The notes: generated by a model from the letters alone, not told the origin. DNA of 64,000 nt from a virus (IMGVR_UViG_3300030376_006980:1-64000); one strand, 5' to 3'; positions 2,449 through 20,948 are shown, counted from the first letter of the stretch. Made by a program: numbers and translations.

Positions 2449-2952
2449 ATGTATAAAGTTCGTAAAATAAACTTTGGATGGTATAAAAGGCGGTATGGTA
2501 TTCTTCTAGAAAACTTACCGCCTTTGAAGCAAAAATTGCTTTTAAATAACCGTCATATGAAATGGTTAGATTCTGATACTCAAGCTTTTGAAATTATATT
2601 TAAAGTAGAGGATATGAATGGCCATGAAAAGAATGTTAATAAACCTATTTGGAATCCTTTCAGAGAAACATTCACCACACTTAAAGAATTAGAAAAAGAT
2701 GCGGATCTTATTGATTGGAATTGTGGAATATGTAAAGTTCCTATTAAATCTAGAATGGACTCTAAGAAAGTAGAAAATTTTGTTTGTAGTAAATGTTCTA
2801 AGGCTCATAACTCACGGAACAAAAGTGTAGATGGTAGAATTATAGATACATCAATTAAATTTACTAAACACTGTAAACACCTCTTAAAAAAGGAACAAAG
2901 AGAGTTTATGACTTATGCTAAAAGATCATCTAAGGCTAGCCGCCTGATTTAA
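2449..2952 (+). CDS. Hypothetical protein with CxxC-x17-CxxC zinc finger
   Basis: CGIC...CSKC; 167-aa ORF. Confidence 0.6.
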   Translation: MYKVRKINFGWYKRRYGILLENLPPLKQKLLLNNRHMKWLDSDTQAFEIIFKVEDMNGHEKNVNKPIWNPFRETFTTLKELEKDADLIDWNCGICKVPIKSRMDSKKVENFVCSKCSKAHNSRNKSVDGRIIDTSIKFTKHCKHLLKKEQREFMTYAKRSSKASRLI

Positions 2953-3729
2953 TGTAATTTTAGGAAATACTTTTAATCTGCTATTAGGTGATGCATTAAT
3001 TACTTCTACTCCAGTTCCTTTCAATTCATCATAAAGTTGTTTAAATCCTGGTAAAAACTTTTCTTTATATACTTTATCACCAGATGATCTAGTTGGATAG
3101 CCATCATGAAAATGTGTATCTTTTCCATCTTCTGCCATATCAAATCCTAGTAAGACAATTCTTTTTGCACCTAAATGATATGCTAAATTAATTGCAGCAT
3201 ACCCACTATTAAAACCATGAGCTAATGTTTCAGGATCAATTTCTAATCCATAAGGTTTTCCTTTTCTTAATATTTTAATGTCGGATGTATATTGACTTCC
3301 AGGTTTTAATGCAAATTTTAAACCTTTAAAACTATCTACTTCATTCTTAAACCATGTGTAGAATCTGCCATCGGTCCAATATACAACATCTGGATCTGTA
3401 ACATAAATTAAGGCTTTATTAATTGCAATTGTTCTTTTTCCATATAAAGATCTAAAATCAAAACCTTTTAATGACGGACCTCCTCCAACTATAAAAATTG
3501 TTTCGTTAGGAAATAATTTAGGAACATAAGAATATCTTACTGTTCTTGGTTTTTCTTCTGCTGCATTTTTAAGAGAGTGTTGAATTTTTGTAATGTTTGC
3601 TGCAATTGCTTGATTATTAGTAGTCCTTACAGCACTCCTCTCATCATTCCTTCTTTGAATATTAGTTCTAACATTTTGAGTAAAAATGGGTTCTTGAATA
3701 ACTTTTCTAACACTTCTTCTTTTTTGCAT
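2926..3729 (-). CDS. Maf/DUF115 (MptE-like, CstII-like fold) putative nonulosonate/Kdo-type glycosyltransferase; only credible minus-strand gene
   Basis: IFIVGGGPSL, IAINKA, GFNSGYAAINLAYHLGAKRIVLLGFDM, THFH; paralog at 42486. Confidence 0.65.
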   Translation of the reverse strand: MQKRRSVRKVIQEPIFTQNVRTNIQRRNDERSAVRTTNNQAIAANITKIQHSLKNAAEEKPRTVRYSYVPKLFPNETIFIVGGGPSLKGFDFRSLYGKRTIAINKALIYVTDPDVVYWTDGRFYTWFKNEVDSFKGLKFALKPGSQYTSDIKILRKGKPYGLEIDPETLAHGFNSGYAAINLAYHLGAKRIVLLGFDMAEDGKDTHFHDGYPTRSSGDKVYKEKFLPGFKQLYDELKGTGVEVINASPNSRLKVFPKITLNQAASLR

Positions 3730-12311: not shown

Positions 12312-15300
12312 ATGGCACTAGATCCAAAAATAGCTTCTCTTAAGGCTGCAGGAACATACAGGTTTGAATTTGATAAAAGTCAAGTTGTAAGTATTCCAGC
12401 AAATCAAACTCGACTGGTGGTCGGTTTTTCTAAGACAGGCCCGTTCAATACACCCGTCTTTGTTCCCGATACTGCTTTCTTTAAGCAAGTATACGGTGAT
12501 ATAGATAGAAATTTAGAAAGAAAAGATTCTTTTTTCCACAGAAGCTGTTTATCAGCTCTTGAAAGAGGACCTATTCTTGCTCTTAATTTATTAGCATTAG
12601 ATGCAGAAGATAAAGTTAACGCTCTTCGTTTTGCAACTGCTGCAACACCAGAAGCACAATCAAATATTGGTGCTGATTATGAATATGCAAGATTTTATAA
12701 TAGAGATAAATTCTGGTTTCCATCAACAGACGACTTTTTAACTAATGTTGGTGCTGATACTACTCAGTTAAGTGCATTAACTGTAAATGATTTATTAGAT
12801 ATTACAAACTTAGGACAGAATCCAAAATCAGTAATTGTTAAAAAATCTGCTGCTCAAAATGTATTACCTTTCCAAGTAACTGTTGAAGAATGGTATGGTG
12901 CAGCAAATGTACCTGGGTATTTAAATAAAGATAGTTTAATTTCTGACTTCTTTGTAGATATATTTGTAATAGATGGTAATTTTGGTGGAGACTTCGGTAC
13001 AACTACTCCTTATTCAAGATTTGCATCTGATCCAATCTTTCAAAAGTATTTTTCACCAACACAAGGTTTATTAAGAAAGAAATTTGCATCAGATTCTACT
13101 GATACGTTATTACAAGAATTCTTTAATGAAACAGAAGTAACATTACAAGCAACTTATACTGCATGTTTACTTCCTGATTTTGTAGATTTATTAGGTAATA
13201 ATCTTTTTGTTGAAAAATTAGTTAATGCTGAAACTGCTTCTACTGGAATATTTGTTACAGTGAATGAAGATTTATTCGATGGTGATACATTAATTGACGG
13301 TGTACAAGGTGGAATTGATATGATAGGACATAATATTGAGTGGACACAAGCTAATTCAATTCAAGATGATGTTAACTTCTTATCATACAGTGGATCAATT
13401 GTTTCTGATTTAGCTTATGATAGAACTCAAGGAATTTCTACAACTGTAGTAAATGATACAAGTACTATTACAGTAGGAGCCCCAACAGGTGGAGGAATTC
13501 AAATACAAGTGGTTAATGCTAATACACCTAAAGATGCTATATGGGATGCTTTTTCAGGTATGAGAGCAAATACTTCTACACTAGTAGGAACGTTTATATT
13601 AGATCCTGTTGCTTTGGAATGGGTTCCAGTAACATCTGTTCAAACTTCAGGTAATACTGTAACTGTATTGTTATCAGATGCAGGTAATCCTGTTGCAGCT
13701 AACTTTCCAACTGGAGCAGCTGCGAGTTATACATTTATAAATGAAGCTGACTTTGGATTTGTAAGAAATGAAAATCCAAGCGGTGGAGCTGCTGGAATTA
13801 TCGGTTCTTATGGAACATTATTACAGGCTCAATTTGCTAACGGTACATTAACTGATGGTGATGAGGCAGTTTATAAAGATGCATTAGGTCAATATACTTC
13901 ATTCTTAGCAATGAATGCTATAGATTTTGGATGGATTATTGATGGACCAGGTGCAACTACTGCTAATAATAAATTACCAATTTCTGATAATAATTATTAT
14001 TTACCAGCAGTAAGGGTAACACCTTATCAAGAAGATTCATATACAAATCTAACTCCACAAGCTGAATTTACTATTGATGGAGCAGGTCAATTTGAAAAAT
14101 CTGATAGTACTGCATTAAATCCATTATTATTTGGACCAAATGTATTTGGTGTACAAACTTTAAAAGGTGCTCTTAACCTAACTGTAGATATTATAGGAGA
14201 TTCATTAAATGAACCAACTCTTAAACCAAATGAAATTCTTATAGCAACAAATTCACCAGAAGCTGCTGATATAGTAGTAGGAAATTATATGGTACATGAT
14301 GAAGGTGGTGTAAACGGACCTTCAAGATTAACCAGAATTAATGTTGTAGAAGGTGGATTAACACCAACAGAATATCCAATTATTCCAGCTGGGACAACTG
14401 CAATGAAAGTAACATGCCAATCTGAAATAAGTGTAACTTCACAAGGTGCTATAAAAACTATAGAGGTTTATTATCCAATTGATTCATGGGTAGATTACCT
14501 TAATGTATTTGAATTACCTGGATTTGCATTAGATGCAACTAAACATGTACCAGATGGAACAAATTCTAGACAGAATAAATGTTTAAGTCCAATTTTAGGT
14601 GGAACAAATTTATTTAAAGCTTTAATTGATAGAGAAACAATTAACTTCCGTTATGTAGTAGATACATTTGGAAATGGAATTGAGGCAAATTGTAAAGCTA
14701 TTTATACAAATTTATGTATGAGTAGAAAAAATGCATTTGCTATCGTTAATGCTCCATCGGCTAAAGACTTTAAGAAAAATACAAACCCAAGCTTTACAGA
14801 TGCAATTGGCGGTTTATCATCTAAGTTTATATCTGAAGGTGGAAACCTTGCATTGAATCCAACAGTTAGATTCTCATTACCTTCTGCAACAAGCGGAGGT
14901 TCATTTGGTGGATATTATTATCCATTCTTAACTGTTAGAGATTTAGGAAAGAACATAAGTGTTCCTCCTGCTGCAAATGTATCAAATAACTTTATTCTTA
15001 AATATGAAAACGCATTACCTTGGTCAATCGTGGCAGGTGTAAGACGTGGAGTAATAGGCGGAAATGGAGTTGTAGGATTAGAAATTAATCTTGATCAAGA
15101 AGATCGTTTCTTCTTAGAGCCATTTGGAATCAATCCAATTGTATTCCAAAGTGGAACAGGGCCAACTATCTTTGCAAATAAAACTGCACAACAGGTTCCG
15201 AAATCTGCATTAAGCTCAATTAATGTTAGAGAGGTTGTAATTTATATCCAAGATGGTATAGAAGCAATTTTGAAAAACTACTTATTTGAATTTAATACAG

Positions 15301-15539
15301 CTCAAACAAGGTTAGAAATAAAAACATTAGCTGATAACTTCTTAGCAACTGTTCAAAATGATGATGGTGTATTTGATTTTAGAAATATAATGGATGAAAC
15401 TAATAACACACCAGAGGTCATTGATCAAAATGTAGGTATCCTAGATACATATATTGAACCAGTAAGAGGAATGGAAATTTTAGTACAAAGAACAACTATT
15501 TTAAGAACTGGAGCAATTAGTTCAGGAAACTTCCAATAA
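12312..15539 (+). CDS. gp18: Contractile tail sheath protein (gp18-like), enlarged to 1075 aa
   Basis: N-terminal AAGTYRFEFD; C-terminal GINPI, SALSSINVR, YLFEFNTAQTR, NNTPEVIDQN. Confidence 0.92.
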   Translation: MALDPKIASLKAAGTYRFEFDKSQVVSIPANQTRLVVGFSKTGPFNTPVFVPDTAFFKQVYGDIDRNLERKDSFFHRSCLSALERGPILALNLLALDAEDKVNALRFATAATPEAQSNIGADYEYARFYNRDKFWFPSTDDFLTNVGADTTQLSALTVNDLLDITNLGQNPKSVIVKKSAAQNVLPFQVTVEEWYGAANVPGYLNKDSLISDFFVDIFVIDGNFGGDFGTTTPYSRFASDPIFQKYFSPTQGLLRKKFASDSTDTLLQEFFNETEVTLQATYTACLLPDFVDLLGNNLFVEKLVNAETASTGIFVTVNEDLFDGDTLIDGVQGGIDMIGHNIEWTQANSIQDDVNFLSYSGSIVSDLAYDRTQGISTTVVNDTSTITVGAPTGGGIQIQVVNANTPKDAIWDAFSGMRANTSTLVGTFILDPVALEWVPVTSVQTSGNTVTVLLSDAGNPVAANFPTGAAASYTFINEADFGFVRNENPSGGAAGIIGSYGTLLQAQFANGTLTDGDEAVYKDALGQYTSFLAMNAIDFGWIIDGPGATTANNKLPISDNNYYLPAVRVTPYQEDSYTNLTPQAEFTIDGAGQFEKSDSTALNPLLFGPNVFGVQTLKGALNLTVDIIGDSLNEPTLKPNEILIATNSPEAADIVVGNYMVHDEGGVNGPSRLTRINVVEGGLTPTEYPIIPAGTTAMKVTCQSEISVTSQGAIKTIEVYYPIDSWVDYLNVFELPGFALDATKHVPDGTNSRQNKCLSPILGGTNLFKALIDRETINFRYVVDTFGNGIEANCKAIYTNLCMSRKNAFAIVNAPSAKDFKKNTNPSFTDAIGGLSSKFISEGGNLALNPTVRFSLPSATSGGSFGGYYYPFLTVRDLGKNISVPPAANVSNNFILKYENALPWSIVAGVRRGVIGGNGVVGLEINLDQEDRFFLEPFGINPIVFQSGTGPTIFANKTAQQVPKSALSSINVREVVIYIQDGIEAILKNYLFEFNTAQTRLEIKTLADNFLATVQNDDGVFDFRNIMDETNNTPEVIDQNVGILDTYIEPVRGMEILVQRTTILRTGAISSGNFQ

Positions 15540-15579: not shown

Positions 15580-16134
15580 ATGCCACTACCACATTATACC
15601 CAATCAAGGGCCAGTAGCCAAAGGTATGAACCTATTCAGCCTAACCTATTTGAGGTGACTGTATTTTCACCACTAGGGGATGATACGGGTTTAATCCTAG
15701 AGCAAGTAAAGTCTATTGGAGGTTTAAATAACTTAAATCCATCAATTGATGCCGTAAATCAAAAATACAAGTTTGCTGATAGATCTTATGCAGGTATGCC
15801 AGCACAGACGTTTGTTGATTTAACTCTTAACTTCAGTCTTAACTTGAATGAAGCTAACGAAAACTACATCTACAATACTTTCCGTAATTGGAATAATTTA
15901 ATCTATGATCCATTAACAGGTGAAATGGGGTTAAAGAAAGATTATGTAGGAAGTATGATTGTAGTTCAATATAACAGAGCAGGTGATATTTTCAGAAAGA
16001 TTACATTTAAAGATGTATTCCCAACTGGACAACCTGATTTTGTGGATGAATTGAATTATGAAACTCAAGATCCTGCTGAATTAACAATGACTTATCGTTG
16101 TGATCACTGGGTTGAAGAGAACGTAGGAGCATAA
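15580..16134 (+). CDS. gp19: Tail tube protein (gp19-like)
   Basis: Follows sheath; EPIQPNLFEV, FRNWNNLIYDP, FKDVFPT, LTMTYRCDHW. Confidence 0.85.
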   Translation: MPLPHYTQSRASSQRYEPIQPNLFEVTVFSPLGDDTGLILEQVKSIGGLNNLNPSIDAVNQKYKFADRSYAGMPAQTFVDLTLNFSLNLNEANENYIYNTFRNWNNLIYDPLTGEMGLKKDYVGSMIVVQYNRAGDIFRKITFKDVFPTGQPDFVDELNYETQDPAELTMTYRCDHWVEENVGA

Positions 16135-16218: not shown

Positions 16219-16689
16219 ATGATAATCTATAAACTACAACAGAACAAAACAAACAAAGTTTATGTAGGATATTCGGTAAATGATAATCCTAATAACTACG
16301 GAACTGGTAAATACATCAAAAGAGCAGTTAAAGATTTTGGTACTAAAGCTTTTAAAAGAGAAGTATTAGAAGTTTTTGATAATGATGAATCTTTAAGTGA
16401 TGTTTTAAAAAGAGTTGAATATTGGATTAATAAATACAAATCCGATAATCCTAAATATGGTTTTAATGAAACAGTACAAGAATTAGTTCCTCAGAAAAAA
16501 AGACTTACTAAAAAATTACAGGTTTTACTAACACCTGAAGACGAAGATAGTCTAAATACAATAATTATACAAAAATCAATGGAAAACGGTACAAAACCTG
16601 TAGCCATTTCTAGATATGTAAGACAATTAATAGTAGAACATATCGTTGATGAAAATAAAATTGAAAAACAATTAATAAAAAACAATTAA
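16219..16689 (+). CDS. GIY-YIG-like domain fused to a ribbon-helix-helix-like C-terminus
   Basis: IIY..VYVG, YGTGKYIKRAVKDFG, FKREVLE, YWI, YGFN; C-terminal KKLQVLL-helix-ISRYVRQLI. Confidence 0.65.
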   Translation: MIIYKLQQNKTNKVYVGYSVNDNPNNYGTGKYIKRAVKDFGTKAFKREVLEVFDNDESLSDVLKRVEYWINKYKSDNPKYGFNETVQELVPQKKRLTKKLQVLLTPEDEDSLNTIIIQKSMENGTKPVAISRYVRQLIVEHIVDENKIEKQLIKNN

Positions 16690-16692
16690 AAA

Positions 16693-17691
16693 ATGTCAAA
16701 AGAGCACGAAGAAAATATTAAAAAGGAATTTGCTGCTGCCGAAGGAATTGCAGTAGAGGCTACAGAAACTCCTAAAGAAACTGTTAAAGATTTAGGAAAG
16801 GTAGATGTACAAAGACAAATGGATCATACATCCCCAGATGATCCAGAAATAAAAAGATTAAATTCATTAGTAGGTTATACTAAGTTAGATTTAAATCAAT
16901 TTCCATCAGGTGGAGCATTCTATAGAGATGATTTTGAAATTCATATTAGAGCTGCAAAGGTTGCTGAAATTAGAGCATTCTCTACATTAGATGAAAATAA
17001 CCTAAAAGAAGTAGATGATGGATTAAACAACATAGTTTTATCATGTACTAAAATAATGTATGGTAATCAAAGAGGATCTTATAAAGATATTTTAGAGGAA
17101 GATAGAATTTATTTAATTTTAGCAATTAGAGAATTAACATTTAAAACAGGTGAACAAACATTAATGATGCCAGTAGGTAAAAAATCTTGTAAAACTTCAC
17201 AGTGCAAATCACAAGAATCAGTGGAGTTAAGAACTGAGAATCTACAATTTAATAATGTAGTAGAGTCCATCGAAAAATACTATGATCCAGCAGATAAATG
17301 TTATACTATAACTACAAAGAGTTATGGTGAAATAAAAATGGCACCACCTACTATCGGTGTTATGAGGGCCATAACTGAATATATCAGAGATAGAGAAGAG
17401 AAAAACCAGAGTTGGGATAAATCTACATTAGCTATCTTGCCTTATCTACAAAGAGAGTGGAGAGGATGGAATGAAAAAGATATTTTTGCAAAGATTACAT
17501 CCTTTCAAGGTTGGGATGCTACTAAATATACAATTGTATATAGATTAGCTGAAGATATGAAAGTTGGTGTTAAACCTGAAATGGGATTCCCATGTAAAAG
17601 CTGCGGTGAGGAGGTCACCGTTCCGCTGACGTTTCCCGGCGGCATCAAGGCTCTCTTCATTATTCCAGATATCTCTTCTGAACTTTTATAA
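16693..17691 (+). CDS. Baseplate hub / tail assembly chaperone (T4 gp26/gp51-like)
   Basis: Upstream of tape measure; RAAKVAEI, C-terminal CKSC zinc motif, LTFPGGIKALF ending. Confidence 0.65.
   Translation: MSKEHEENIKKEFAAAEGIAVEATETPKETVKDLGKVDVQRQMDHTSPDDPEIKRLNSLVGYTKLDLNQFPSGGAFYRDDFEIHIRAAKVAEIRAFSTLDENNLKEVDDGLNNIVLSCTKIMYGNQRGSYKDILEEDRIYLILAIRELTFKTGEQTLMMPVGKKSCKTSQCKSQESVELRTENLQFNNVVESIEKYYDPADKCYTITTKSYGEIKMAPPTIGVMRAITEYIRDREEKNQSWDKSTLAILPYLQREWRGWNEKDIFAKITSFQGWDATKYTIVYRLAEDMKVGVKPEMGFPCKSCGEEVTVPLTFPGGIKALFIIPDISSELL
17604..17642 (+). other. Putative programmed +1 frameshift signal (two GC hairpins, TTT CCC G)
   Basis: CGGTGA-GGAGG-TCACCG and CCGCTG-ACGTTTCC-CGGCGG; +1 frame open 17630..17941 with no upstream ATG. 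Confidence 0.6.
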
Positions 17692-17941
17692 AGTTAGAGT
17701 TTTATTATTAGAAAAGTTGCATCTCCAGCCTACCGAGCTGGATTTGCTACCTTTTTATGAGTATGAGTATACTCTAGAAATTTATAATGATCTATTAAAA
17801 GAGCGTAATAAACAAGAGCAACAAAATACTAAAGATGCAGAAGATAAATATAATGTATCAGGTATGCAAAGACAAGCATCTAAGAATATGAGTCAATATA
17901 AAGCTCCTAGGATGCCTGCAATTAAAATGCCTAAACTATAA
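17630..17941 (+). CDS. Second (probably frameshift-fused) part of the tail chaperone; track start 17717 is TTG
   Basis: SLLNFYKVRVLLLEKLHLQPTELDLLPFYEYEY resembles the T4-like SLENYY...YSLTELENMxPWE segment, and the resemblance begins upstream of the TTG. Confidence 0.6.
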   Translation, partial: RFPAASRLSSLFQISLLNFYKVRVLLLEKLHLQPTELDLLPFYEYEYTLEIYNDLLKERNKQEQQNTKDAEDKYNVSGMQRQASKNMSQYKAPRMPAIKMPKL

Positions 17942-17957
17942 AAATAAAATCTAACAA

Positions 17958-20948
17958 TTGGCAGCGGTAACACTAAAAGATTTAATGGATCCATTAACAA
18001 AGATCCAAGCAGCGACCGAGTCTTCTGCTGAGTCTTTAGATAACTTAACGTTAGCTTTAGCTACGAGTGTACAAACTAACCAAGCTACTTCAGATAAAAC
18101 TAGTGATTCTATAAATGCATTAACTGCAACCTTAAGTGCACCAGATGCCTTTATGGATTCTATTCAGACTGCTATATTAGCAGAACTTCAATTACAAACT
18201 CAGTTAATGAGAAAGAAAGGTGGTGGAGGACTTGCTACTTTATTTGGTGGAGGTGGTGGAGGTAAAGGTTCTAAATCTGCTTTTGCAGAAGGAGCTAGTG
18301 CATTTGAAATGTTAGGTGCTGGGACAATAAGTATGGCTAAAGGTTTATTGTTATTTATGTTAGTACCTGTAAAGACCGTTAACAAATTTAATGATTTTGT
18401 CAGAAATCAGATAGAGATGTGGGCAGATTCAGATCCTAAAAAGATGTCAGAAGGAACTGCCACTTTAATGTTAATGGGTGATTCTATATTTAATTTTGCA
18501 AAGTCATTAGCATTAGCTGCTCTTTTATTAATACCTGCCGCTATAGGTATTCCAATGTTATATTTAGCCACTGCTCTAACTGTGCCATTATTTTTGTTAT
18601 TAGGAATGGGAGCTAAGACCATACAATCAGGTGGAGAAGCATTAGAACAAATGGGAACTTCTATAGCTAAGTTTGCATTAGGACTAGCTGCGTTTGCTCT
18701 AGTAACAGCTTTAGTATTAATGGGTGGTCCAGTATTAATGATGGGAATGGTTGGAACTTTATTATTAATAGGTGGAGCCGTAGCCGTTTTAGGATTAGTA
18801 GATAAAACTATTAAGAAAGGATCTGTGGCATTGGCAGTAATGGGACTTGGGTTAGCTGTCTTTGGTTTAGGATATGCCGTATTTGCATTAACAGTTGCTG
18901 CAACTGCTCCAACATTAGAAAGTTTATTATTACAGGCTGGAGTTTTAGTAGGTATAGGAATAGCCACAGCAATATTAGGATCTCTATTTAGTTTGATTAT
19001 TCAAGGTGCAGCTTCAATGGCAGCAATGGGAATAGGTTTATTTGTATTTGGTTTAGGTTATATACCATTTGCTTTTGCTACTAAAGATACAACACTGGAG
19101 GATGTCGGTGTACAAGGTGCATTATTATTAATGTTAGGTTTAGAATTTGCAGCAGCAGGATTAGGCGCATTATTTATTATTCCAGGTGCAGCTGCATTTG
19201 CTGCAATAGGTGGAGCTTTACTCTTACTAGCTCCAGGGTTAGCAGCTATTCAAAAAGTAGATTTTACAGAAAAAGATGCTCTTAAATTAACAACAACATT
19301 AGCTGGTGTAAAAGCAGCATTTATAGGACCTCCTGGTAAAGGTGGTATAGGTGGATTCTTTAAGAGTATAGGTGGAGCTTTAACTGGAGCAGTTGATTCA
19401 GTTAAGATGATTGCTGCTGCCGCAGGTTTTGCTGCTGCTGGTGTTGCTCTTTCAAAATTATCTGTAGGATTAAAAGATTATCAAAAATTAGATTGGACTG
19501 ATAATGACAGTTTAAGATTAACTGGAGTTTTATCTGGTATAACAACAGCGTTTGCACAAGCAGGTGGTGAACCTGCAACACCAACAGGTTTATTTGGTGC
19601 TGTCTTTGGAAATGCATTTAGTCCTAATGCAACAAAAAGAGGTATTGATTCAGTGATGGGTGCAGGTAAAGCATTAACTAGTATTGCTGAAGGTTTAACG
19701 GCATTTTCTAAATTAGTAGAAAAGGATGTTGATTTTGAATATGTTGGTCAACAAATAGAATTAACGGTAGGATTTATACAAAGAGCATTTGCTGCTGTTG
19801 CTGATGAAGGTAATGTTGAAGCAGGTGGATTCTTTAATTCATTATTTGGAATTAAGAAGAATAAAGTTGCTGAAGGTTTAAGTGCGGTGCAAGGTGCAGG
19901 TGCTGCGTTAAAAGATATTGCAATAGGTTTAACTGAATTTCAAAAATTAGTTGAATCTAAAGTAGACTTTGATGCGGTCGGAGCTGCTATATCTAAATCA
20001 GTTGGTTTTGTACAAGAAGCATTTTCAGCCGTTGCAGAACAAGGTAATGTACAGGCTGGTGGTTTTTGGGGAAGTTTATTAGGAATTAAGAAGAATAAAG
20101 TACAAGAAGGTATACAATCAGTACAAGGAGCAGGAACTGAATTAGAAAAAATTGCTAATGCATTATCTACATTCTCCGGTATAGAAAACGTAGAAGAGGT
20201 GGCTGGAAAAATCAAAGTAACTTTAGGTTTAGTTGGTGATGCATTTGCTTCTATCGGTGGATCTGAAAATGAAGAAAGTGATTCAGCTTTCTTTGGCATG
20301 ATTAAATGGGATGAAAATAAAATACAAAAAGGTATTGAAGCTGTTGATGGGGCTGGTGCTGCATTAACTGATATTGCCGAAGGACTCAAATCTTTTAGTG
20401 GTGACTTTCAACCAGAAGCAGTTGCTACATCTGTAGGTAAATTATTAACTTCTATAGGAACAGCGTTCAGTGATCTTTATACAGCTAACCCTGAAATGTC
20501 TGAAGAGTTAGATGATTTTAAATCCTTTATTGTAACTTTAGGAGATGTAGCAGAAAAAGGACAATTAGATAAAGCTGCTGATGGTATTTCTAAAATAGCT
20601 GATTCAATTAATAAAATAGATGTTGATAAAGCAGTATCATTCGGTAACTTATTTAACAGTGCATCTGATTTATCTTCTAACAGAGGAGCATATCGTGCTC
20701 TAGCTCGAGCAGTTGAAGATATCCGAGATATAATGGTTGCAGATACTGGAGGTAGCGATGGTGGTGTCGTTGGAGCAATTAAAGATAAGGTATTTGGTAA
20801 GTCTGAACCTAAATCATCTAGCAGTGGTGGAAATAAAGCATTAACTAGTACTCTTAATAATCTTAATAGAACTATAGGTGCATTACCTAATCAAATGAAA
20901 ACTGCTCTTGCAACTGCTACTATTACAGTTGAAGATCCTAATCGTTAA
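17958..20948 (+). CDS. Tape measure protein (TTG start)
   Basis: 996 aa, Ala/Gly/Leu-rich with hydrophobic central segment and periodic helical repeats; follows chaperone. Confidence 0.8.
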   Translation: MAAVTLKDLMDPLTKIQAATESSAESLDNLTLALATSVQTNQATSDKTSDSINALTATLSAPDAFMDSIQTAILAELQLQTQLMRKKGGGGLATLFGGGGGGKGSKSAFAEGASAFEMLGAGTISMAKGLLLFMLVPVKTVNKFNDFVRNQIEMWADSDPKKMSEGTATLMLMGDSIFNFAKSLALAALLLIPAAIGIPMLYLATALTVPLFLLLGMGAKTIQSGGEALEQMGTSIAKFALGLAAFALVTALVLMGGPVLMMGMVGTLLLIGGAVAVLGLVDKTIKKGSVALAVMGLGLAVFGLGYAVFALTVAATAPTLESLLLQAGVLVGIGIATAILGSLFSLIIQGAASMAAMGIGLFVFGLGYIPFAFATKDTTLEDVGVQGALLLMLGLEFAAAGLGALFIIPGAAAFAAIGGALLLLAPGLAAIQKVDFTEKDALKLTTTLAGVKAAFIGPPGKGGIGGFFKSIGGALTGAVDSVKMIAAAAGFAAAGVALSKLSVGLKDYQKLDWTDNDSLRLTGVLSGITTAFAQAGGEPATPTGLFGAVFGNAFSPNATKRGIDSVMGAGKALTSIAEGLTAFSKLVEKDVDFEYVGQQIELTVGFIQRAFAAVADEGNVEAGGFFNSLFGIKKNKVAEGLSAVQGAGAALKDIAIGLTEFQKLVESKVDFDAVGAAISKSVGFVQEAFSAVAEQGNVQAGGFWGSLLGIKKNKVQEGIQSVQGAGTELEKIANALSTFSGIENVEEVAGKIKVTLGLVGDAFASIGGSENEESDSAFFGMIKWDENKIQKGIEAVDGAGAALTDIAEGLKSFSGDFQPEAVATSVGKLLTSIGTAFSDLYTANPEMSEELDDFKSFIVTLGDVAEKGQLDKAADGISKIADSINKIDVDKAVSFGNLFNSASDLSSNRGAYRALARAVEDIRDIMVADTGGSDGGVVGAIKDKVFGKSEPKSSSSGGNKALTSTLNNLNRTIGALPNQMKTALATATITVEDPNR
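19287..20650 (+). repeat. About six imperfect 74-79 aa repeats in the tape measure protein
   Basis: Repeat starts 19287, 19518, 19755, 19989, 20211, 20433 (e.g. IELTVGFIQRAF / ISKSVGFVQEAF / IKVTLGLVGDAF; GIKKNKV twice). Confidence 0.75.

Follow-up and report, generated by a model that had tools for sequence, protein, structure and literature searches.

In a 64,000-nucleotide (nt) stretch of viral DNA (IMGVR_UViG_3300030376_006980:1-64000, hereafter the window), we found that the gene of a hub/tail-assembly chaperone, referred to below as open reading frame A (ORF-A; 16693..17691, + strand), very probably carries a programmed +1 ribosomal frameshift near its 3' end. The case is built on comparative sequence analysis. 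Most ribosomes would read ORF-A in frame 0 to the TAA at 17689 and release a protein of 332 amino acids (aa) ending in ...SSELL, and a fraction would slip one base forward at UUU-CCC-G (17632-17638) and go on in the +1 frame to 17941. Read through this site, the fusion is 415 aa long and would join the same 315 N-terminal residues to a 100-residue alternative C-terminus encoded by the +1-frame extension, ORF-B (junction ...VPLTFP-AASR...). An earlier reading of the same DNA, made without relatives or databases (the sequence-only reading), had proposed +1 recoding that yields a fusion chaperone of about 415 aa, and the frame-specific selection and conservation described below, both comparative, support it.

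Coding signatures across the overlap

The +1 frame is closed by a TGA at 17627-17629 and then stays open from 17630 to 17941. ORF-B (17633..17941, + strand) comprises 102 codons from shift to stop, and the segment 17630..17691 (+ strand) is a putative dual-coding overlap of frames 0 and +1, to which the upstream +1 stop of many relatives and a switch in selection near 17650 point. No ATG, GTG or TTG lies in the +1 frame within 17630-17716; its start codons are TTG 17717, TTG 17744 and a first ATG at 17864. This confirms the earlier description of a +1 frame that opens after TGA 17627 and runs to 17941 without an early start. Because no start codon is found between 17630 and 17717, only ribosomes already translating ORF-A can supply the +1 reading there. 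The -1 frame is closed within 9 codons, and the overlap holds no lambda-type X_XXY_YYZ heptamer.

Close relatives comprised 80 IMG/VR loci with 76-97% protein identity, 78 of which reach the junction; codon tables and ratios of nonsynonymous to synonymous variation (pN/pS, by the Nei-Gojobori method) were obtained from 51 distinct sequences. ORF-B lies in the +1 frame in every related locus reaching the junction (78/78), and tblastn aligns the ORF-B of relatives from the first codon following the TGA. More than 90 related phage sequences retain this layout, among them those of cultured jumbo phages and of Lak megaphages. Purifying selection moves from frame 0 to frame +1 at about 17650. Upstream, pN/pS is 0.13 in frame 0 and 1.45 in frame +1, and at 17597-17650 the two values are 0.09 and 1.79. 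In the overlap from 17651 to 17688 they are 0.81 and 0.10, and downstream (17692-17809) they reach 3.41 in frame 0, which is not coding there, and 0.07 in frame +1. Among frame-0 codons at 17620-17649, nearly all changes in the 51 sequences are synonymous (Val, Pro, Leu, Gly, Gly, Ile, Lys). From 17651 onward, synonymous changes appear in the +1 frame (Leu CTC/CTA/CTT, Ser TCA/TCC/TCG, Leu, Phe, Leu CTT/CTG/CTA, Phe, Lys, Arg, Val, Leu and further codons), and the same changes replace residues in frame 0 (I/L/V, I/V, P/S, S/A/T). A TAA or TGA occupies the +1 frame at 17627 in 25 of the 51 sequences which, together with selection from about 17651, places entry into the +1 frame within 17630 to about 17651.

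The 3' end of ORF-A also coincides with a GC-rich island of rare codons (17597..17660, + strand; 59% GC vs 30.8% for the window), lying within the last 90 nt of the gene and containing TGC, GAG, GTC, ACG, CCC, GGC and CTC, all rare in the window. The sequence-only reading had suggested aligning relatives for synonymous-site conservation, and had held that lack of conservation of the overlap among related phages would speak against recoding. In that alignment synonymous variation in the island is roughly halved (pS 0.254 vs 0.509 upstream), the synonymous sites of ACG TTT CCC are invariant, and the overlap is kept in all 78 loci. The island is also overlapped by a minus-strand ORF of 51 codons (17505-17660). 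Position 17659 varies between A, C and G, and over half of the relatives thereby lack its ATG (17658-17660); this ORF is a by-product of the GC-rich patch and not a gene.

Searching GenBank phages with tblastn, we found the family matched only in jumbo and mega phages. Cultured carriers are Sphingomonas phage PAU (gp93), Tenacibaculum phages pT24 and PTm1/PTm5, Chryseobacterium phages MA9V-1 and MA9V-2, and Flavobacterium phage MaF61; further carriers are Prevotella Lak megaphages and huge uncultured phages of 462-735 kb. Twelve of these distant lineages were examined, at 19-48% identity. In all 12 the +1 ORF extends 52-133 codons past the ORF-A stop, with overlaps of 59-143 nt, and 11 have a closed -1 frame. 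From the shift site on, ORF-B can be aligned colinearly with +1 reads from 11 distant phages, with shared motifs F-S-L-F-Q inside the overlap, then Q-P-S-E, P-[FY]-Y-E and a basic M-P-K tail. FSLFQ precedes any start codon shared by these +1 reads. The frame-0 tail is likewise conserved across lineages (G-G-I-K-x-L-F ... E-L-L-stop), and the conservation of both tails suggests that neither product is dispensed with. Among proteins of 169-2000 aa no in-frame fused homologue of ORF-A and ORF-B was found, which is weak evidence; one candidate, P0154 (387 aa), was rejected as it diverges after residue 252. Searches of IMG/VR for related loci with P0214 and P0150 returned nothing. In one Lak phage, Lak-B5 (L087:3078-3689), in-frame TAGs cut the +1 ORF; with TAG read through, it runs 131 codons past the ORF-A stop, like that of Lak-C1. 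This interruption is in keeping with the recoding of stop codons known from some Lak phages.

These data bear directly on whether ORF-B could instead be a separate small gene, initiated at TTG 17717 or at the non-canonical ATA 17669 or CTG 17678, with no fusion made. TTG 17717 is invariant in the 51 sequences, and these phages seemingly make little or no use of Shine-Dalgarno (SD) sequences, so that a poor initiation context would not rule such a start out. A frameshift is marked in none of the five annotated GenBank records that we checked (PAU, MA9V-2, pT24, MaF61 and PTm1); each carries a separate small hypothetical protein (PAU gp94, L081:5010-5147; MA9V-2, L082:4863-5039; pT24, L083:4800-5021; MaF61, L084:3339-3509; PTm1, L085:3414-3536). 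However, the annotated starts are inconsistent and non-homologous, those of PAU and MA9V-2 falling inside or after the P-[FY]-Y-E motif, and TTG 17717 encodes a conserved Leu. Moreover, +1 purifying selection begins at 17651 (pN/pS 0.10), 66 nt before the TTG and also before ATA and CTG, and FSLFQ precedes any start in all lineages. We therefore regard independent initiation of ORF-B as very unlikely.

The proposed slip site and its RNA context

The proposed shift site, ACG UUU CCC G (17629..17638, + strand; E-, P- and A-site codons plus the next base), is distinguished by its invariance and its distant recurrence. ACG, TTT and CCC are each invariant in 51/51 sequences, including all three synonymous sites, whereas four-fold codons nearby vary freely (GTN in 4 forms, CCN in 4, CTN/TTA in 4 and GGN in 3). 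In-frame TTT CCC occurs only once among the 16,612 codons of the window's long ORFs. A single occurrence, together with an arrangement kept in 78/78 loci, amounts to more than chance. CCC is the rarest Pro codon of the window (10/593 Pro codons, 2%; 0.6 per 1000 codons), and ACG makes up 4% of its Thr codons. Forward re-pairing is possible at both codons (UUU to UUC and CCC to CCG). The sequence-only reading had noted that TTT CCC G would permit this for both tRNAs; the comparison of relatives supports recoding at this motif or right beside it, the motif being frozen in close relatives and recurring in distant phages. Most likely, with CCC awaiting decoding in the A site, the P-site peptidyl-tRNA-Phe would exchange its G:U wobble on UUU for Watson-Crick pairing on UUC; were tRNA-Pro to slip instead, from CCC to CCG, the peptide (...TFP-AASR...) would be identical. 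The efficiency of the shift, the identity of the slipping tRNA and the roles of the hairpins described below are what we infer from this context.

Measured to the ORF-A stop, the candidate site of the distant phages is 57-75 nt upstream (57-66 nt except in PTm1), and TTT-C is present at the homologous position in 9/12. The site reads TTT CCC in PAU, pT24 and three huge phages, TTT CAA in Lak, LR756500 and PTm1, and TTT CGA in MaF61. MA9V-2 and LR756504 have none of these; candidate sites there are ATT TTT CTA and a CCC A or A run.

The GC island, the three hairpins and TTT CCC G are all present where the sequence-only reading had placed them, and the hairpins differ in how well they are conserved. 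Hairpin 1 (17604..17620, + strand; CGGTGA/GGAGG/TCACCG; -10.3 kcal/mol, z -1.97) has a 6-bp stem and presents GGAGG in its loop (17610-17614). Across 48 sequences 98.6% of its cells are paired, and the pair 17605-17619 is G-C in 36, A-U in 10 and G-U in 2; the switch from G-C to A-U entails one Gly-to-Ser change and one synonymous change. GGAGG or GAGG recurs 14-22 nt (mostly 17) upstream of TTT in 10/12 distant phages despite differing flanking residues, and in 6 of them a hairpin folds at this motif with unrelated stems, for example TGTGG/CCACA and GTAG/CTAC; no such upstream hairpin was folded in Lak phages or PTm1. Ending 11 nt before UUU, the GGAGG-loop hairpin may promote the forward slip by re-forming behind the ribosome. 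On 70S ribosomes in vitro, +1 shifting is stimulated by hairpins or SD duplexes located upstream (Huang et al. 2018, PMC6321510), which makes hairpin 1 a reasonable but unproven candidate for a 5' stimulator.

Hairpin 2 (CCGCTG/CGGCGG, 17623-17642; -9.1 kcal/mol, z -1.76), which had been taken to enclose the slip site, exists in the window but is not conserved. Its 80.9% pairing equals that of shuffled sequences, the closing pair and full pairing occur in only 4/48 sequences, and we rejected it as a conserved element. Hairpin 3, located inside ORF-B 28 nt past the ORF-A stop (17719..17747, + strand; -14.6 kcal/mol, z -4.86), is the most stable of the three, with 99.8% of cells paired in the 48 sequences. 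Its pair 17728-17738 is G-C in 27, A-U in 19 and G-U in 2, with 9-11 changes on the tree and co-change in 5/5 independent pairs. Thus the third hairpin of the sequence-only reading is real and conserved but, lying 80 nt past the slip site, is unlikely to be a classical stimulator. A scan found no terminator or promoter at hairpin 3, and no Rfam family was found within 17500-17850. An alternative fold from RNAalifold, pairing GGAGG with UUUCC, was dropped because relatives with TTT CAA cannot form it.

Several observations weigh against a programmed shift at this site. Covariation in hairpin 1 is confined to one pair, changed 3-4 times on the tree, and the conserved CxxCGEEV...FPGG peptide accounts for part of the conservation of the island. 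The GGAGG ends 17 nt before UUU, vs the 3-nt spacing that is effective in prfB, and ribosomes of Bacteroidota sequester their anti-SD sequence. No structure was found directly 3' of the slip site (17639-17716, z +0.19), so any stimulator would be unconventional. CCC is a rare and presumably slow A-site codon here, but relatives with TTT CAA (Lak, LR756500 and PTm1) carry a common codon in its place, and for them the hungry-codon argument fails. Finally, MA9V-2 and LR756504, without TTT-C at the homologous position, must shift elsewhere.

Recoding might also be real yet proceed otherwise, by a -2 shift or at another place in 17639-17653 such as GCT CTC TTC, which the sequence-only reading had offered as an alternative. 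The selection data bound entry only to 17630-17651, and shifts of -2 and +1 reach the same frame. Against this, re-pairing two bases back is impossible for every codon in 17629-17653, and GCT CTC TTC varies freely, its CTC codon taking 7 forms in the 51 sequences, for which we rejected it. Within the interval, TTT CCC alone is both slippery and synonymously frozen, and it recurs in distant phages, making a different route into the +1 frame very improbable. Least likely of all is that the overlap owes its conservation solely to constraints at the nucleotide level (RNA structure, a protein-binding site or the minus-strand ORF), with the +1 frame untranslated there: halved synonymous variation in the island, compensatory change in two hairpins and the existence of the minus-strand ORF would fit, but the variation shows clear +1-frame codon periodicity, the +1 peptide stays conserved even between phages that can no longer be aligned at the DNA level, and over half of the relatives have lost the minus-strand ATG.

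Protein family, gene order and phage type

ORF-A is probably a distant member of the T4 gp26/gp51 family of hub assembly chaperones (PF12322) and not a homologue of lambda gpG. Homology to gpG, which the analogy drawn by the sequence-only reading might imply, finds no support, as no Pfam tail-chaperone family was matched by ORF-A, ORF-B or 99 diverse relatives. By sequence, ORF-A matches phrog_36717 (E 8e-28), a family of unknown function, and scores 18.7 bits (E 0.0015) against PF12322 (T4_baseplate), below the curated cut-off of 24.5 bits. PF12322, a model covering both T4 gp26 and gp51, matches 38 of the 99 relatives at E<0.01 (best E 6.7e-10). Pfam also lists PF28602 for homologues of gp51, although our Pfam scan of T4 gp51 itself did not return it. 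PAU gp93 reaches 33.7 bits, above the cut-off, and is the sole such match in the PAU genome; no second PF12322 gene was found within the 64-kb window. Profile comparison by hhalign of ORF-A with T4 gp26 and gp51 gave about 70% probability (E 4e-5). The AlphaFold2 model of ORF-A (predicted local distance difference test, pLDDT, 91) matches predicted structures in BFVD that carry the names baseplate hub subunit or hub assembly protein (E 1e-9 to 4e-4, template modeling (TM) score 0.3-0.5), including gp26 of Aeromonas phage 25 and a gp51-like protein of Campylobacter, which points to a gp26/gp51-like predicted fold. Neither a sequence-profile search nor Foldseek found relatives of ORF-A in the PDB. 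The frame-0 C-terminus, CxxCG...GGIKALF...ELL-stop, resembles that of T4 gp26, CPECG...RGLKEFFELL-stop.

Within ORF-A (16693-17688), residues ~106-169 align with the C-terminal Cys-knuckle module of gp26, and residues ~236-317 with the N-terminal module of gp51 (CPKCKKEKTVPF). ORF-A thus looks like two tandem modules, which suggests an internal duplication in the family.

For ORF-B the signals are fainter. The profile phrog_634, corresponding to the C-terminal half of gp51, weakly matches 3/12 +1 reads (best E 8e-4), in the fusion the match to phrog_150 reaches as far as profile position 251 (gp26 ends at 235), and ORF-B shares with gp51 a short motif, K-L-x-L-[NQ]-P-[DS]-E ... F-Y. By hhalign, the ORF-B profile gave a probability below 1% against gp51 and against a 34-sequence gp51 profile (three tests, all negative). 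That ORF-B is the counterpart of the gp51 C-terminal extension is only weakly indicated. A predicted complex of the tube protein with the +1 extension scored 0.00, which says nothing either way.

The two ORFs are embedded in a tail module that reads, on the + strand, sheath, tube, GIY-YIG-like ORF, ORF-A, ORF-B and tape-measure candidate. The tail sheath gene (1075 aa, 12312-15539, + strand) precedes the tail tube gene (184 aa, 15580..16134, + strand), identified by tail tube families phrog_45 (E 8e-8) and phrog_3629 (E 2e-7). Between tube gene and ORF-A lies the GIY-YIG-like ORF (156 aa, 16219-16689, + strand). In relatives the distance from the end of the tube gene to ORF-A is about 560 nt, matching the window (e.g. 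L003, with the tube gene at 2887-3438 and ORF-A from 4001). Given this constant spacing, the GIY-YIG-like ORF seems to be a fixed part of the tail module and not a sporadic insertion. ORF-B is followed by a probable tape-measure gene (996 aa, 17958..20948, + strand), proposed from its size, position and Gly/Ala-rich hydrophobic repeats; PHROG and Pfam scans gave no family match for it. Its start (17958-17960) is TTG in the window and its two closest relatives, and aligns with ATG GCT GC... in most other relatives. A large ORF homologous to this candidate comes next in PAU (gp97) and MA9V-2, and gene order in PAU, MA9V-2 and pT24 is identical to that of the window. The overlapping pair is thus placed between tube and tape-measure genes, as in the lambda G/GT layout.

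The source of the window is an AT-rich giant marine phage of the PAU/Lak jumbo type. The sequence-only reading had called it T4-like, which does not apply in the strict sense; the phage is placed with PAU, Lak and the Bacteroidota jumbo phages.

Relation to known systems and significance

The lambda gpG/gpGT-type frameshift in tail chaperones is conserved in long-tailed phages (Levin et al. 1993; Xu, Hendrix and Duda 2004; reviewed in PMC5009743). As in lambda, the locus described here has two overlapping ORFs between tube and tape-measure genes, the second without its own start, in an arrangement conserved despite sequence divergence. In contrast to lambda, the predicted shift is +1 and not -1 and uses no X_XXY_YYZ heptamer, ORF-A is far longer than gpG (332 vs ~140 aa) and differs from it in family and fold, being PF12322-like with two Cys-knuckle modules and no Pfam tail-chaperone match, and a GIY-YIG-like gene separates it from the tube gene. 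A predicted +1 version of the G/GT-type frameshift is known from another contractile-tailed virus, the haloarchaeal myovirus HSTV-2, whose tail chaperone shift is likewise only predicted and whose host, unlike that of the present phage, is archaeal (cited in PMC5009743).

Sites of +1 shifting include UUU_Y in bacteria (Yersinia YopN-TyeA) and UCC_UUU_CGU in influenza PA-X (PMC5009743), and the low-GC Listeria phages PSA, A118 and A500 shift +1 at a rare CCC (Atkins et al. 2016, PMC5009743). The site proposed here shares with them a P-site codon that re-pairs perfectly one base forward, followed by a rare codon, in an AT-rich genome. It differs in having neither an adjacent stop codon nor a 3' pseudoknot, in its conserved upstream hairpin with an SD-like loop, and in the gene concerned, an assembly chaperone and not a capsid or tube protein. 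Overall, the system follows the G/GT principle in function and layout and departs from it in direction, site type, protein family and size of the first product. In the literature we found no paper describing a +1 frameshift in this chaperone family.

Chaperone pairs made by frameshifting count as a textbook rule in the assembly of long-tailed phages, and T4 has been cited as the exception to G/GT frameshifting (PMC5009743). Its gp26 (208 aa) and gp51 (249 aa) are hub assembly chaperones of PF12322 (Leiman et al. 2010, PMC3004832). By hidden Markov model and predicted fold ORF-A appears to belong to the same family, and T4, too, has a pair of related proteins that serve in assembling the hub and tape measure. 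Unlike here, it makes them from two paralogous genes plus an internal start (26') and without frameshifting; the single PF12322 match of PAU, like that of the window, is the proposed frameshift gene. Judging from position and family, the two products of ORF-A would act together in hub and tape-measure assembly, like lambda G/GT and T4 gp26/gp51. A more specific scenario, which we put forward tentatively and consider possible though rather doubtful, is that in PAU, Lak and Bacteroidota jumbo phages one gene gives both a gp26-like protein (frame 0, ending in ...ELL) and a gp51-like protein (trans-frame, with an extra C-terminal domain) through an ancient UUU_C +1 shift driven by a GGAGG-presenting 5' hairpin, T4 genes 26 and 51 being the duplicated, frameshift-free equivalent. 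If so, T4 would be no true exception to the G/GT rule, the rule would extend to a second, unrelated chaperone family, and the 5' hairpin would be a type of stimulator so far known only from engineered constructs.

In summary, the T4-type hub chaperone family itself would carry a conserved forward frameshift beside the tape-measure gene. The annotation of these genomes, in which the small downstream ORFs now have arbitrary starts, would be corrected, and proteins like T4 gp26/gp51 would gain a testable function as the G/GT counterpart of large myoviruses. Mechanistic work on +1 shifting in bacteria would also gain a naturally occurring, deeply conserved site (UUU_C, with a 5' hairpin but without 3' structure), one open to study in Bacteroidota, whose translation signals are unusual.

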